Shown: positions 29,139 through 41,978 of the stretch, piece after piece
Numbering within the stretch: the stretch's first letter is position 1
How the letters are laid out: each line of letters starts with the position of its first letter
NCBI GenBank assembly: GCA_031430835.1
Contig: JANPCH010000072.1
Span: 4,866-68,865, forward strand
Reading direction: 5' to 3'
Length of the DNA stretch: 64,000 nt
Source of the DNA: Gemmatimonadaceae bacterium
GTDB lineage: Bacteria; Gemmatimonadota; Gemmatimonadetes; Gemmatimonadales; Gemmatimonadaceae
Made by a program: the position numbers and the translations under genes
Notes under the pieces: generated by a model
What the model was told of the DNA's origin: nothing
Seen by the model: only the letters and a program-made list of their open reading frames with translations
Databases searched by the model: none

Positions 29139-29546
29139 ATGCCGACGATCAATCAGCTCGTCCGGCAGAGCCGCCGCGAAGTCGTCAAGAAGGACAAGGC
29201 GCCGGCTCTGAAGGAGAATCCGTTCAAGCGGGGCGTGTGCACGCGCGTGTACACCACCACCCCGAAGAAGCCGAACTCCGCGCTCCGCAAGGTGGCGCGT
29301 GTCCGCTTGGTCAACGGTTTCGAAGTCACCGCCTATATCCCCGGCGAAGGCCACAACCTGCAGGAGCACTCGATCGTGCTCATCCGCGGTGGCCGCGTGA
29401 AGGACCTCCCGGGCGTTCGTTACCACATCGTGCGCGGCAAGCTCGACGCCTCCGGCGTCAACGGGCGAAACAAGAGCCGCTCCAAGTACGGCACCAAGAA
29501 GCCGAAGGCCGGCGGGGCCAAGCCCGCCGCGGGAGCCAAGTCATGA
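29139..29546 (+). CDS. rpsL: 30S ribosomal protein S12
   Basis: [26 protein letters not shown]. Confidence 0.99.
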
Positions 29547-30013
29547 GTCGCCGCAAGAGTGCCGTGAAGCGCACCATCCTCGCCGATGGGCGCTACGACA
29601 GCCAGACCGTCTCGAAGTTCATCAACGTCCTGATGTATCAGGGCAAGAAGTCCACCGCCGAGCGGATCTTCTACGGGGCGATGGACATTGTCGAGGCGAA
29701 GTTGGCCCAACCGGGCGTGAATGTCTTCAAGCAGGCGCTGACCAACCTGAAGCCGGTCGTCGAGGTGAAGAGCCGCCGCGTCGGCGGCGCGACCTACCAG
29801 GTGCCGGTCGAGGTGCGTCCGGAGCGCCGGACCGCCCTCGCGATGCGTTGGCTCATCTCCTACTCACGCGAGCGGAATGAGAAGTCGATGGCCGAGAAGC
29901 TGGCGGCCGAGACGATCGCCGCGTCGAAGGGGGAAGGGAACGCGGTGAAGAAGCGCGAGGACACGCACAAGATGGCCGAGGCCAACAAGGCGTTCGCGCA
30001 TTACCGCTGGTAG
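29543..30013 (+). CDS. rpsG: 30S ribosomal protein S7
   Basis: [28 protein letters not shown]; ATG 29543 overlaps the rpsL stop. Confidence 0.98.
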
Positions 30014-30031
30014 GCGGACGGCAGATGGCAG

Positions 30032-30067
30032 AGCGGGGGGCGACCGACGGTCGCTCCCCGCTTTTGT
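30032..30067 (+). terminator. Intrinsic terminator after rpsG
   Basis: AGCGGGGGGCGACC-GAC-GGTCGCTCCCCGCT followed by TTTGT. Confidence 0.7.
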
Positions 30068-30128
30068 CTAGGGCAAGTCCAGGCGAGGAGGGCGCCGCTG
30101 CCGACTCGCCGCAACCGATGTCCCCGCC

Positions 30129-30156
30129 TTGACATAGCCGCAGCGGCGACTAACTT
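30129..30156 (+). promoter_or_regulatory. Putative sigma70 promoter of fusA-tuf-S10
   Basis: Perfect TTGACA-16 bp-TAACTT. Confidence 0.7.
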
Positions 30157-30159
30157 ACG

Positions 30160-30568
30160 CAGGCTCTGGCGACCTGGCTCGAAAATGGGTTGTCGGACAC
30201 GGACATCCGCTGGTGGATGTCCCCGGGGAGCTGCGCCCCGGAAAGATGGGCCCGCCAACATCGGCTCGGTTAGCGACGCGCGGGGGGAGTGGACAGCCCG
30301 ACCGATCCCGCGTTCGCCTCTCACGAGGCCGCGCGCCGAGGTTCCCGAAAAGAACGCAGGACAACTTGACGTCGGGTGATGGAAGTTATTGCTGCGTTGG
30401 CACCCGATGCGCCGAGGGTCCCCAGTCGCGCTCCAGTGGCGACTGTACCCGGCGAGTGCGGATGGATACCGGTTCCCCGGATGCTGTCAGGGGGGAACGC
30501 CTGGTCCAGCCGCGTTTTTGTTCCACCACGCTTTCCCTACCGCGAAACCGACCGAGCCGCACTGACCG
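30160..30568 (+). ncRNA. Candidate ~400-nt structured cis-regulatory leader or ncRNA upstream of fusA
   Basis: At least six helices visible by eye plus a 9-bp long-range pair 30262-30270/30551-30559; no convincing ORF. Confidence 0.45.
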
Positions 30569-32686
<2,118 letters not shown>

Positions 32687-32787: not shown

Positions 32788-33990
<1,203 letters not shown>

Positions 33991-33999
33991 GAGCGACCA

Positions 34000-34308
34000 A
34001 TGGCGGGACGTATCCGGATCCGACTCAAGGCCTTCGATCACGCGGTGATCGACCAGGCTGCGGCGGACATCGTGCGGACGGCGGAGAAGACGGGGGCGCA
34101 GGTCTCCGGTCCGATCCCGCTGCCGACGAAGACGCAGCGGTGGACGGTCCTCCGTTCGCCGCACGTCGACAAGAAGTCGCGGGAGCAGTTCGAGCTGAAG
34201 ACGCACAAGCGCGTGATCGACATCCTCGACTCGAAGGCGGTCACGGTCGATGCACTGACCAAGCTGGACCTTCCGGCGGGTGTGGATGTCGAGATCAAAG
34301 TCGAATAA
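34000..34308 (+). CDS. rpsJ: 30S ribosomal protein S10
   Basis: [28 protein letters not shown]. Confidence 0.99.
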
Positions 34309-34446
34309 CGGCAGGCGGAAGGTGGAAGGTGGAAGGGGCGCGCCGGGTGAAGCCCCGGCGCACCGGTGAGAGGAGAAGGATCGTCGTGACGTGGGCCGAC
34401 CGAACGGGCGGCCCCCGTCCTCCTTCCCCCTTCCACCTCCCCTGTG
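34309..34446. repeat. Family A full-length (~135 bp) element between rpsJ and rplC
   Basis: GGAAGGT x3 arm, two internal hairpins, CCTTCC arm; close homologue of 41375-41509. Confidence 0.85.
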
Positions 34447-35154: not shown

Positions 35155-36051
35155 ATGTCTGACACGATGACATTCGACGCGGCGGCCTTCACGGCCCTCG
35201 GCACCCCGCGTGAGCGGGTGGCCCTGCCGACGGCGACGTTCGACGGCACGGTGAACGTGCCGGTGATGCATCAGGCGGTGAAGGCGTATCGCGCCAACCA
35301 GCGCCAGGGCACGCACGCGACCAAGACGCGTCGTTGGGTGGTGGGCGGCAATCAGAAGCCGTGGAAGCAGAAGGGGACCGGCCGGGCCCGCGCGGGTTCG
35401 ACTCGCGCCCCGCACTGGGTCGGTGGCGGTGTCGTCGGTGGACCGACGCCCCGCGACTACGAGCAGGGGCTCCCGCGCCAGGTGAAGGCCCTCGCTCGCA
35501 AGAGCGCGTTCAACGCGCGGGCCCGCGAGGCGGCGGTGATCATCATCGATCGCTTCACGTATGACAAGCCGAAGACGGCCCAACTCGCCCAGCTCCTCGC
35601 CCGCCTCGAGGTCTCGCACCGCAAGGTGCTGATCCTCACGGATGGTGCGAAGCCGGCGGTGTATCTCAGCGGCCGGAACCTCCCGAACGTGGTCGTGCAG
35701 CCCTACAGCGACGTCAGCACCTACCACCTCCTCTGGTCGGAGATGGTGCTCGTCGAGGCGCCGGCGATCGGACAGGTGCTCGCGCCGGTCTCCGAGAACG
35801 CGCTCGAGAAGGTGAAGGTGCGCAAGGCCCAGGCGAAGGCGCCGAGCAAGGCGAAGGAAGAGGCGAAGAAGGCCGAGCGGAAGGCGACGGCGAAGGTCGA
35901 GAAGTCGATCAAGGCCGCGAAGGCGAAGCGGGCCGCTGCGAAGAGCGCCGCGCCGGCGAAGAAGGCAGCTCCGGCGACTGCCAAGGCTGCCGCGAAGAAG
36001 GCACCGGCGAAGAAGCCTTCTGCTTCCGCGCCCAAGAAGAAGGGGAAGTAG
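35155..36051 (+). CDS. rplD: 50S ribosomal protein L4 with ~90-aa K/A-rich C-terminal tail
   Basis: [25 protein letters not shown]; RNLPNV. Confidence 0.97.
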
Positions 36052-40378: not shown

Positions 40379-41053
40379 ATGGCAACGACCAAAGCGCAGG
40401 GCACAACGAAGAAGGGCGGGGGTCAGGGCGACAAGCGCGCCTCGATGCTCCCCAAGGACCACAAGGGTGCGGGACTGCCGGTGCCGGCACCGCGACTCCA
40501 CAACTATTACAACAAGACGGTGCGGGAGCGGTTGGCCAAGCAGTTCGGCCTTGGCAACCCGCACGAGATCCCGACGCTCGAGAAGATCACGCTCAACGTG
40601 GGGATGGGGGAGGCGATCAAGCAGCCCAAGGTCCTCGACGCGATCGTCGATGAACTCGCGACGATCACCGGTCAGAAGCCGGTCCGGACACGGGCGAAGA
40701 AGTCGATCGCCAATTACGGGCAGCGTGAAGGGCAGGAGATCGGCGTGGCGGTGACGCTGCGCGGCGCGCGGATGTGGGAGTTCCTCGACCGGTTCATCTC
40801 GACGGCGATCCCACGGATCCGCGACTTCCGGGGACTCAACACCCGCGCCTTCGACGGCCGCGGGAACTACAGCCTCGGGATCAAGGAACAGATGATCTTC
40901 CCCGAGATCAATTACGATCTCGTGGAACAGATCCACGGCATGGACCTGACGTTCGTGACCACCACCAACCGCGACGATATGGCGTTCGCGCTCCTCCGGG
41001 AGCTCGGGATGCCATTCCGCGGCGACGATAAGCCGATCGTCGTCCAGGGCTGA
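40379..41053 (+). CDS. rplE: 50S ribosomal protein L5 with ~40-aa N-terminal extension
   Basis: LEKITLNVGMGE, IPRIRDFRG, FDGRGNYSLG. Confidence 0.98.
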   Translation: MATTKAQGTTKKGGGQGDKRASMLPKDHKGAGLPVPAPRLHNYYNKTVRERLAKQFGLGNPHEIPTLEKITLNVGMGEAIKQPKVLDAIVDELATITGQKPVRTRAKKSIANYGQREGQEIGVAVTLRGARMWEFLDRFISTAIPRIRDFRGLNTRAFDGRGNYSLGIKEQMIFPEINYDLVEQIHGMDLTFVTTTNRDDMAFALLRELGMPFRGDDKPIVVQG

Positions 41054-41374: not shown

Positions 41375-41509
41375 AACGGCAGGGGGAAGGTGGAAGGTGG
41401 AAGGGGCGCGCCGAGTACTGCCGGCGCGCCGGCGGGAGAGAGAGGGCTGCGTGACGATGGGGCGCCCGAACGGGCGCCCCCCTTCCTCCTTCCACCTTTC
41501 ACCTGCAGT
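41375..41509. repeat. Family A full-length element with 23-bp imperfect terminal inverted repeats
   Basis: Left AACGGCAGGGGGAAGGTGGAAGG; right CCTTCCACCTTTCACCTGCAGTT. Confidence 0.85.
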
Positions 41510-41579: not shown

Positions 41580-41978
41580 ATGTCAATGACCGACCCGATC
41601 GCCGACATGCTCACCCGGATCCGCAATGCGGTCGGGTCGAAGCATCGGCGCGTCGATATGCCGTCGTCGAAGATGAAGGTCGAGATCGCGCGCATCCTCA
41701 AGGAGACGAACTTCATCACCGACTTCCGCACACTCGAGAATGAGGAAGGGCGGAAGGTGCTCCGCGTGGCGCTCAAGTACGCCGGGGGCACGCCGGTGAT
41801 CCGGCAGCTTCGGCGCGTCTCCACGCCGGGCCTCCGGCAGTACGTCGGTGCCTCGGAGATCCCGCGCGTCCGCAACGGACTTGGCGTCGCGATCCTCAGC
41901 ACCTCGAAAGGGCTGATGACCGACCGTCAGGCGCGTGCGCAGCGCACCGGGGGCGAACTCCTCGCCCTCGTCTGGTAA
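41580..41978 (+). CDS. rpsH: 30S ribosomal protein S8
   Basis: MSMTDPIADMLTRIRN, STSKGLMTD. Confidence 0.98.
   Translation: MSMTDPIADMLTRIRNAVGSKHRRVDMPSSKMKVEIARILKETNFITDFRTLENEEGRKVLRVALKYAGGTPVIRQLRRVSTPGLRQYVGASEIPRVRNGLGVAILSTSKGLMTDRQARAQRTGGELLALVW

Follow-up and report, generated by a model that had tools for sequence, protein, structure and literature searches.

What occupies the 555 bp between rpsG and fusA in this Gemmatimonadaceae genome, and which genes does it serve? The window, i.e. the whole 64,000-nt stretch of contig JANPCH010000072.1 analyzed here, comes from a Gemmatimonadaceae metagenome-assembled genome (MAG), and its nearest genome loci are Gemmatimonadaceae or Gemmatimonadota MAGs. 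One metagenome scaffold in ENA encodes the same rpsG product. In the window rpsG ends at 30013 and fusA, encoding elongation factor EF-G, starts at 30569; the G+C content of the gap (67%) equals that of the window. A preliminary description, made from the letters alone, had proposed that the str operon is split here by a terminator, a new promoter and an undescribed cis-regulatory leader RNA. Conservation and covariation in relatives had been named beforehand as the test of this idea, and both were found. With a promoter, a covarying leader and no match in Rfam, the proposal is supported: the spacer very probably carries a conserved cis-regulatory leader and attenuator, a new family within the known class of ribosomal protein (r-protein) leaders. 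We propose that the spacer consists of the rpsL-rpsG terminator, a dedicated promoter and a leader RNA of roughly 350 nt, which would head one long unit of fusA, tuf and then the S10, spc and alpha genes.

A conserved leader precedes fusA or rpsJ

A scan anchored on EF-G, with one genome per species, yielded 14 Gemmatimonadota loci. All loci of the Gemmatimonadales type contain a conserved block just 5' of fusA, corresponding to about 30395-30524 of the window (blastn, MAFFT), regardless of whether rpsG lies upstream. In an unbiased set of ten sequences (the window and nine loci from EF-G homology) the columns GCGGA..GAUACC and GGUC...CCG..UUUU are invariant. A pattern built from these invariants, with GAUACC and GGUC fixed, was scanned on metagenome contigs and detected at least 120 loci. 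Among the matches listed, about 100 loci have the motif 18-117 nt 5' of a fusA gene whose product is 77-94% identical to the EF-G of the window; the motif is always on the sense strand, and rpsG is located 42 nt to 13 kb upstream of it or is absent. Seven of the listed matches fall in unrelated sequence and are due to chance; six of these were not found by a covariance model at an E-value of 1 or better, and the seventh (L179) was outside the loci searched.

The genes around the spacer in the window are the following.

29139-29546: rpsL (window gene call)
29543-30013: rpsG (window gene call)
30569-32686, plus strand: fusA, the first gene 3' of the leader
32788-33990, plus strand: tuf, 3' of fusA
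34000-34308, plus strand: rpsJ, 3' of tuf
34000 to about 51278, plus strand: contiguous S10-spc-alpha cluster
35155-36051, plus strand: rplD (uL4; Pfam Ribosomal_L4, E = 5e-59), alternative candidate regulator
41580-41978, plus strand: rpsH (uS8; Pfam Ribosomal_S8, E = 3e-47), candidate regulator within the S10-spc-alpha cluster

The S10, spc and alpha genes follow each other without significant gaps up to about 51278. The uL4 open reading frame (ORF; rplD, 35155-36051) encodes 298 aa, about 90 of which are outside the Pfam L4 domain. Should translation begin at the first ATG, the uL5 ORF (rplE, 40379-41053) may have up to about 40 additional N-terminal residues rich in Lys and Gly.

Gene order in the relatives shows to which gene the leader belongs. 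Tuf and then rpsJ directly follow in 22 of the 22 fusA-type loci with enough downstream sequence, and in three loci (L160, L188, L200) the complete element, including its upstream core, stands directly before rpsJ-rplC-rplD, with neither fusA nor tuf. Thus, the leader belongs to the gene that heads the unit containing the r-protein cluster, and the earlier suggestion that control may extend to S10 and spc is strengthened. Since rpsJ-only loci exist, EF-G (or EF-Tu) is an unlikely ligand, autoregulation by EF-G is unlikely, and an r-protein of the cluster is favored instead. An independent non-coding RNA, which had also been considered, is unlikely because in many loci only 18-30 nt lie between the terminator of the leader and the start codon, leaving no room for another promoter.

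The str operon itself is indeed split. Not only does rpsL-rpsG close with a terminator, but in relatives rpsG is often located elsewhere or is separated from fusA by an inserted opposite-strand gene. In L003, L004, L005, L007 and L015 rpsG is not within 2.5 kb of fusA, L002 has a 1.5-kb rpsG-fusA gap with an opposite-strand gene inside, and the other EF-G-anchored loci have gaps of 37-443 bp. The insertion in L002 and the frequent distance between rpsG and fusA make this junction a rearrangement hotspot in the phylum. In L002, the closest genome relative, the inserted gene is found on the minus strand from 1064 to about 2100, 3' of rpsG and ahead of the leader promoter; it is lipoprotein-like and has beta-propeller-type repeats.

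Two subtypes of the leader can be distinguished. Type A, to which the window belongs, has the signature GCGGAUGGAUACC ... GGUCCA(C/G)CCGC; type B has the signature GCGGAGCGAUACC ... GGUCGCCCCGC and a different upstream domain. R1, the covariance model of type A, also recognizes type-B members, with E-values from 3e-8 to 0.03. It found no second copy in the window and no copy in 66 loci of other phyla, five Longimicrobium-type loci and the rRNA operon of Escherichia coli. A search against Rfam, which had been suggested earlier, gave no family for any part of the spacer: at the gathering threshold of Rfam 15 only four tRNAs are found in the window, and by E-value the best matches in 29900-30700 have E >=0.3 and all lie on the rpsG terminator. 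A T-box was considered as well; the likeness is superficial, and the Rfam T-box model gave no match.

Structure and covariation of the leader

The leader consists of a 3' module common to the family and, in the window, an additional 5' domain.

30370-30522, plus strand: conserved 3' module (P1, P3, P4 and U-run), about 160 nt at the 3' end of the spacer
30370-78/30401-09, plus strand: hairpin P1 (CGUCGGGUG/CACCCGAUG), length and sequence vary across the family
30410-30454, plus strand: CGCC-GA-GGGUCCC and ACCC-GGCG segments around P3, possible helix P2
30423-29/30439-45, plus strand: P3 (CAGUCGC/GCGACUG)
30458-30513, then U-run UUUUUGUU at 30515-22, plus strand: P4, a 56-nt terminator hairpin
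30201-08/30215-22, plus strand: 5' domain hairpin H1; L086 and L146 have hairpins of different sequence at the same place
30223-28/30236-41, plus strand: 5' domain hairpin H2, loop GAnCUGCG conserved
30246-55, plus strand: block AUGGGCCCGC, conserved in the alignment of relatives
30251-55/30280-84, plus strand: H3, absent from the preliminary description
30300-11, plus strand: GACCGAUCCCGC, within the clade-specific 5' domain
30316-20/30325-29, plus strand: H4 (GCCTC/GAGGC)
30340-69, plus strand: conserved block GGUUCCCGAAAAGAACGCAGGACAACUUGA

Covariation was evaluated in 94 distinct sequences. The proposed partners can pair in 96.3% of the cells, compared to 35-50% with slid partners, and 14 of the 21 pairs have compensatory changes. 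Double-change cells number 361 versus 104.5 in shuffles, a value that none of 500 shuffles reaches. For P3, compensatory pairs are found at six of seven positions in alignment A3 and at seven of seven in alignment A5. The lower stem of P4 (GCGG-A-UGGA/UCCA-G-CCGC) changes from type A to type B at positions left free by the search pattern (U-A to G-C, G-C to C-G), and in its upper stem (GUUCCCC 30472-78/GGGGAAC 30492-98) all five of five pairs have compensatory changes. P1 is present in every type-A sequence; its closing pairs read CGUCG.../...CGRCG and its interior is variable. P2 is unproven since its segments are invariant and 16 sequences have an A.C mismatch, although it is part of the minimum free energy (MFE) fold; the MFE fold of the single sequence gives the same P1/P2/P3/P4.

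The ~200-nt 5' domain is found only in a long-leader subgroup, made up of the window and its closer relatives. Other type-A clades lack it, their leader beginning about 85-160 nt before P4. Within the domain, H2 has compensatory changes at three of five pairs (19 relatives), and H1 and H2 together fold with z = -3.4. H3 and H4 are represented in relatives by hairpins of unrelated sequence at fixed positions, and a block YUCCCGAAAAGnAACGCAGGACAA is conserved.

The preliminary description had listed seven helices, all of which are exact reverse complements at the coordinates given there. Its six local helices are backed by relatives, TCGGGTG/CACCCGA being part of P1, CAGTCGC/GCGACTG being P3 and GTTCCCC/GGGGAAC being the upper stem of P4. 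The seventh, a helix that spans 9 bp over a long range (30262-70/30551-59), lacks such backing: one or more pairs of this kind occur in 67% of dinucleotide shuffles, and a counterpart is absent from the alignment with the closest relatives L002, L086 and L146. This helix is thus the part of the earlier observation that has to be given up, while the gap, terminator, promoter and local helices stand. As the helix is at chance level and not conserved, the sequestration of a Shine-Dalgarno (SD) sequence that it implied near the ATG has no support either. Folding of the whole spacer is no better than that of shuffles (z = -1.37 for the plus strand, -0.83 for the minus strand); local hairpins are enriched, with 10 stems of >=7 bp within 40 nt compared to 2.7 in shuffles (p ~0.003).

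It is correct that fusA has no obvious SD sequence. This is nothing special, since rpsG, tuf and the fusA genes of relatives have none either; a strong SD sequence is generally absent upstream of fusA, tuf and rpsG in the window and its relatives. In many relatives (e.g. L015, L082, L097, L098, L113) a purine tract resembling AGAGA(C) precedes the fusA ATG by 5-15 nt. Between P4 and the start codon neither sequence nor length is conserved among relatives.

A coding function of the spacer was rejected. The ORFs 30185-30379, 30213-30590 and 30001-30324 (minus strand) are not conserved, and the spacer is not protein-coding because the indels of relatives are not multiples of three (in hairpin loops) and the substitutions are compensatory. 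A leader peptide starting from the conserved AUGGGCCCGC was discarded as well, its frame and stop codon not being conserved by inspection.

The leader has its own promoter

The 5' part of the spacer contains two further elements.

30032-30067, plus strand: intrinsic terminator of rpsL-rpsG, with a 14-bp G+C stem, GAC loop and UUUUGU tail
30129-30165, plus strand: sigma-70-type promoter, with -35 box TTGACA (30129-34), -10 box TAACTT (30151-56) and conserved AGGCT (30161-65)

The terminator had been described as a U-tailed hairpin, and its stability bears this out: it folds with -37.8 kcal/mol (z = -4.6), equaled by none of 200 shuffles. A similar element is located 3' of rpsG in L002.

The promoter TTGACA-16-TAACTT is present at 30129-30156 as had been noted, and a transcription start site (TSS) is predicted at about 30162-30166. 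Relatives were searched with the pattern TTGAC[AT]-N15-19-[TC]Ann[TA]T, and expectations were taken from composition-matched random sequence. Among the matches listed, the pattern occurs 5' of the leader in 61 of 69 type-A loci (0.24 expected) and in 21 of 33 type-B loci (0.06 expected), and GGCU is located no more than 12 nt past the -10 box in 59 of the 61 promoter-bearing type-A loci. The window sequence TTGACA-16-TAACTT-ACGC-AGGCT fits the pattern exactly and aligns with the promoters of relatives. A generic promoter scan of the window did not call this promoter because TAACTT matches TATAAT at only three of six positions; we hold it to be real because it is conserved in relatives. The promoters of this phylum share the consensus TTGAC(A/T), 16-17 nt, TAnnTT, 4-6 nt, AGGCU, with a -10 box that is poor by E. 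coli standards. The type-B loci L100, L125 and L174 have no room for a promoter; there, a minimal element of one hairpin and P4 lies directly 3' of rpsG.

P4 as a terminator with a putative binding site

P4 has the features of an intrinsic terminator: a predicted hairpin of -27.7 kcal/mol with the U-run UUUUUGUU directly 3' of it, and the U-run is kept in all members. The earlier reading of the spacer as a structured leader was right in outline; the terminator itself had gone unrecognized, only the upper stem of P4 having been described. In many loci P4 sits 18-30 nt from the start codon, and therefore the downstream genes are transcribed only by read-through. Because these genes are essential and highly expressed, termination must be partial or conditional. 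P4 is imperfect: it contains a mismatch (A.C or A.G), a bulged UA and an internal loop that is asymmetric, and its unpaired nucleotides are invariant while the neighboring pairs covary. Ordinary terminators do not show this, and it indicates a binding site inside the hairpin.

An antiterminator formed in type A by CGCG..GGGU and the 3' terminator strand ACCCGCG was considered and rejected, since the pairing is lost in type-B loci such as L083 and L147. As no conserved antiterminator was found, regulation must modulate the efficiency of the terminator, which is plausible by analogy with L4/NusA in E. coli and unproven.

In metatranscriptomes, contigs of four runs align to 30213-30540 with 85-99% identity, and some of them extend past the U-run. 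This is consistent with a leader that is transcribed and partly read through. One contig (run X8, 99% identical to the window) starts at 30213, directly after an Illumina adapter sequence; this indicates a recurrent RNA fragment end in the H1 loop, about 50 nt past the predicted TSS, which may reflect a processing site or only an artefact of fragmentation.

From the conservation, structure, gene context and promoter of the leader we infer regulated termination with a protein as the signal, and protein-dependent transcription attenuation is the most likely mechanism. The 3' module (30370-30522) would be a transcription attenuator, whose P4 hairpin polymerase would have to pass to express the genes downstream. 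The ligand is probably an r-protein encoded downstream.

The P4 loop resembles the S8 binding site

The invariant internal loop of P4 is similar on both strands to the S8 site in helix 21 (h21) of 16S rRNA.

30465-30470, plus strand: 5' strand of the S8-site-like loop, G A U A C C, equivalent to 16S G639 A640 U641 A642 C643 N644
30503-30506, plus strand: 3' strand of the S8-site-like loop, G G U C, equivalent to 16S N596 G597 U598 C599

The E. coli 16S site comprises AAGUC (595-599) and GAUACU (639-644). These strands pair as C599-G639, U598-A640, unpaired U641 and A642, G597-C643 and then A596-U644; the leader loop reads C30506-G30465, U30505-A30466, unpaired U30467 and A30468, G30504-C30469 and then G30503-C30470. 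S8 binding is determined by the triple (G597-C643).U641, by the invariant A642 and by the 596-644 pair, which varies and is C-G in Thermus (PMC4176348). The unpaired purine 595 joins the 596-644 pair in a base triple, which is A.(A-U) in E. coli and G.(C-G) in Thermus (PMC4176348). The leader has equivalents of the first two: G30504-C30469 with unpaired U30467 is invariant in the ten unbiased sequences, and A30468, in the place of A642, is invariant in types A and B. The loop is closed by U30505-A30466 and C30506-G30465, followed by C30507-G30464 and A30508-U30463, which covary between the types, and beyond these pairs by the mismatch A30462/G30509 and the GCGG/CCGC stem. The 596-644 equivalent is G30503-C30470, and the adjoining unpaired nucleotide is variable, mostly a pyrimidine, in a 4-5-nt loop.

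A motif definition that recovers h21 of E. coli finds exactly one site, the loop of P4, in the 64-kb window with both strands counted, the background being 0.66 per 128 kb or about 0.003 per 555-nt stretch. With a relaxed motif, no other site was found in the untranslated parts of the gene cluster. In the uS8 protein of the window, both the STS motif and the Tyr with which the RNA is contacted are retained.

Close known counterparts are h21 and the spc operator of E. coli (GAAACU/AAGUC), the latter with the strand topology of the leader. All of them have G-A-N-A-C opposite G-U-C, two unpaired nucleotides including the invariant A642 equivalent, and Watson-Crick flanks, and rpsH is located in the cluster that is, or here would be, regulated. 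The leader differs from the spc operator in its location, 5' of the whole cluster and not at the start of rplE, and in its presumed mode of action, transcription termination and not translational repression. Moreover, it has G-C in place of the 596-644 pair, does not conserve the 595 purine and has no homology to the operator in the rest of the RNA.

In the proposed mechanism, free uS8 in excess over 16S rRNA would bind the internal loop of P4 and stabilize the terminator hairpin, resulting in more premature termination; when uS8 is taken up by ribosome assembly, read-through would dominate. Among the possible ligands uS8 is the best candidate, followed by uL4 or another protein of the cluster, and its assignment is tentative. 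Taken as a whole, autogenous attenuation of the S8 type, acting on the fusA-tuf-r-protein unit, is our best explanation, and we regard it as evenly poised between right and wrong.

Several points weigh against this explanation. The match to the S8 site is an 8-nt motif, and since L4 and S7 sites were examined too, multiple testing lowers its weight. The leader does not reproduce the 595 purine, and the likeness was measured on h21 of E. coli, from which that of the host may differ. Unbiased evidence for the invariance of GAUACC/GGUC comes from the window and nine loci, since most members were collected with a search pattern that fixed those letters. By inspection, no antiterminator pairing conserved in both subtypes was found. 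The RNA evidence is weak, as it consists of assembled metatranscriptome contigs of relatives, which may include DNA. Finally, S8 does not account for the clade-specific ~200-nt 5' domain.

Alternative ligands and functions

The strongest competitor, though itself unlikely, is the same attenuator with uL4 or another protein of the S10 operon as ligand, acting as in the E. coli S10 leader, in which L4 together with NusA stabilizes a paused complex at the terminator hairpin. The leader heads a unit that holds rpsJ-rplC-rplD, directly so in L160, L188 and L200, and thereby has the location of the E. coli leader in the 5' UTR (untranslated region) of an rpsJ...rplD unit. The architecture is similar to that of the E. 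coli hairpins HD and HE: both are long structured 5' leaders of an r-protein cluster, with variable upstream hairpins and a hairpin immediately preceding an imperfect terminator, from whose U-run the first start codon is a few tens of nt away (PMC3616713, PMC10931766). The E. coli S10 leader has no obligatory antiterminator and is controlled by enhanced termination (PMC3616713, PMC10931766), as is presumed here. In addition, GCGAUAC is common to type B and to nt 311-340 of 23S rRNA in the L4-binding domain I. However, this likeness is a 7-mer on one strand without a matching structure, whereas both strands of the invariant loop agree with the S8 site, as does the bulge. Homology to the HD-HG helices was not seen: R1 gives no match to the E. 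coli leader even with filters off, and no sequence similarity is apparent by eye. The element described here is also usually located before fusA-tuf-rpsJ, with a loop that is S8-like and not L4-like. The L4 and S8 operators of E. coli are confined to Gammaproteobacteria (PMC3616713).

It is less probable still that P4 has no ligand and is a constitutive partial terminator, a pause or a processing/stability element that sets a fixed expression ratio, its sequence being conserved by requirements of RNA polymerase or RNases. By sequence P4 is an intrinsic terminator, and the type-B elements of L100, L125 and L174, between rpsG and fusA without their own promoter, could simply lower the downstream level. 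But ordinary terminators are not conserved in sequence down to about 75% EF-G identity, nor do they have invariant bulges (A, UA) amid covarying pairs. Furthermore, P1, P3 and the conserved single strands would be left unexplained.

That the multi-helix leader senses a small molecule or alarmone, or responds to two ligands, S8 at the terminator and another one at the 5' domain, appears improbable to us. Above all, this reading concerns the ~200-nt 5' domain that marks the long-leader clade, in which a conserved GAnCUGCG loop and the blocks AUGGGCCCGC and CCCGAAAAG occur; if the reading were true, a single RNA would set transcription of EF-G, EF-Tu and about 30 r-proteins by a metabolic signal. 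A riboswitch for a metabolite or alarmone (guanine nucleotide, (p)ppGpp), with an aptamer overlapping the terminator, ranks marginally lower. It would account for the highly conserved unpaired segments CGCC..GGGUCCCC and ACCCGGCG and the P3 loop CAGU, for several helices that end in a terminator, for the extra conserved domain of ~200 nt in the long-leader clade and for the lack of an Rfam match. On the other hand, the most conserved part is a terminator stem and not a junction, neither subtype has a conserved antiterminator pairing by inspection, and the element is tied only to the fusA/rpsJ unit. Minimal elements such as those of L174 and L125, one hairpin and P4, are too small for a typical aptamer.

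Control in trans by uS7, which would couple expression of EF-G and the downstream genes to S7 in place of the translational coupling of E. coli, is very improbable: the type-B element usually lies directly 3' of rpsG and 16S 1373-1386 (GAAUACGUUCCCGG), which we take to be an S7 contact region, loosely resembles GGAUACCGGUCCCG, but this likeness runs into the freely covarying upper stem, the leader also occurs before rpsJ with no rpsG nearby, and control by S7 would not be autogenous because rpsG is outside the regulated unit in the window and absent from many loci.

Relation to other r-protein leaders

To our knowledge, there is little detailed understanding of the autogenous control of r-protein operons beyond E. 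coli and a few Firmicutes. In the literature we found no such leader reported for Gemmatimonadota, and this leader would be the first element of its kind described for this common, little-studied soil phylum. Its unusual place before fusA results from the str operon being cut after rpsG and fusA-tuf being joined to S10-spc-alpha. If S8 is the ligand, the leader would represent convergent rRNA mimicry of the h21 site inside a terminator hairpin, and a single protein would govern transcription of the genes for EF-G, EF-Tu and about 30 r-proteins, unlike the translational operator at rplE in E. coli. With more than 100 aligned sequences in two subtypes, the leader can be entered into Rfam as a family.

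A mechanistic parallel is the infC-rpmI-rplT leader of Bacillus subtilis, in which L20-dependent attenuation through rRNA mimicry controls a translation factor together with r-proteins (PMC1865079). Both are terminator-based r-protein leaders that mimic an rRNA site, here as a prediction from sequence. They differ in protein, structure and phylum, and no counterpart of the alternative antiterminator/terminator folds of the L20 leader was seen in our alignments. Predictions of lineage-specific leaders 5' of rpsJ or in the rpsG-fusA spacer exist for Firmicutes, Peptostreptococcaceae, streptococci and Pelagibacter; they include the Firmicutes S10 r-leader, the Peptostreptococcaceae rpsJ motif and the streptococcal rpsG-fusA attenuator (PMC7247131, PMC11109978, PMC2965389). 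The Firmicutes, Peptostreptococcaceae and streptococcal leaders, whose ligands are not known, are, like the present one, conserved structures predicted by comparative genomics, and they differ from it in phylum and sequence and in the absence of an Rfam match here.

Further observations in the window

A palindromic, highly structured repeat of about 95-140 nt, composed of GGAAGGT heptads and their complement, is found at 2584-2650, 34310-34441 and 41378-41500. The pattern GGAAGGTGGAAGG has 25 matches in the window (with up to two mismatches), compared to 1.3 expected. Two copies of the repeat, about 80% identical and with about -88 kcal/mol, fill two unusually long spacers inside the r-protein cluster, rpsJ-rplC (159 nt) and rpsN-rpsH (~205 nt). 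The repeat could be an element similar to repetitive extragenic palindromic (REP) sequences or miniature inverted-repeat transposable elements (MITEs), or an intercistronic processing/stability signal. Four tandem tRNA genes, unrelated to the leader, are located at 985-1383 on the plus strand.

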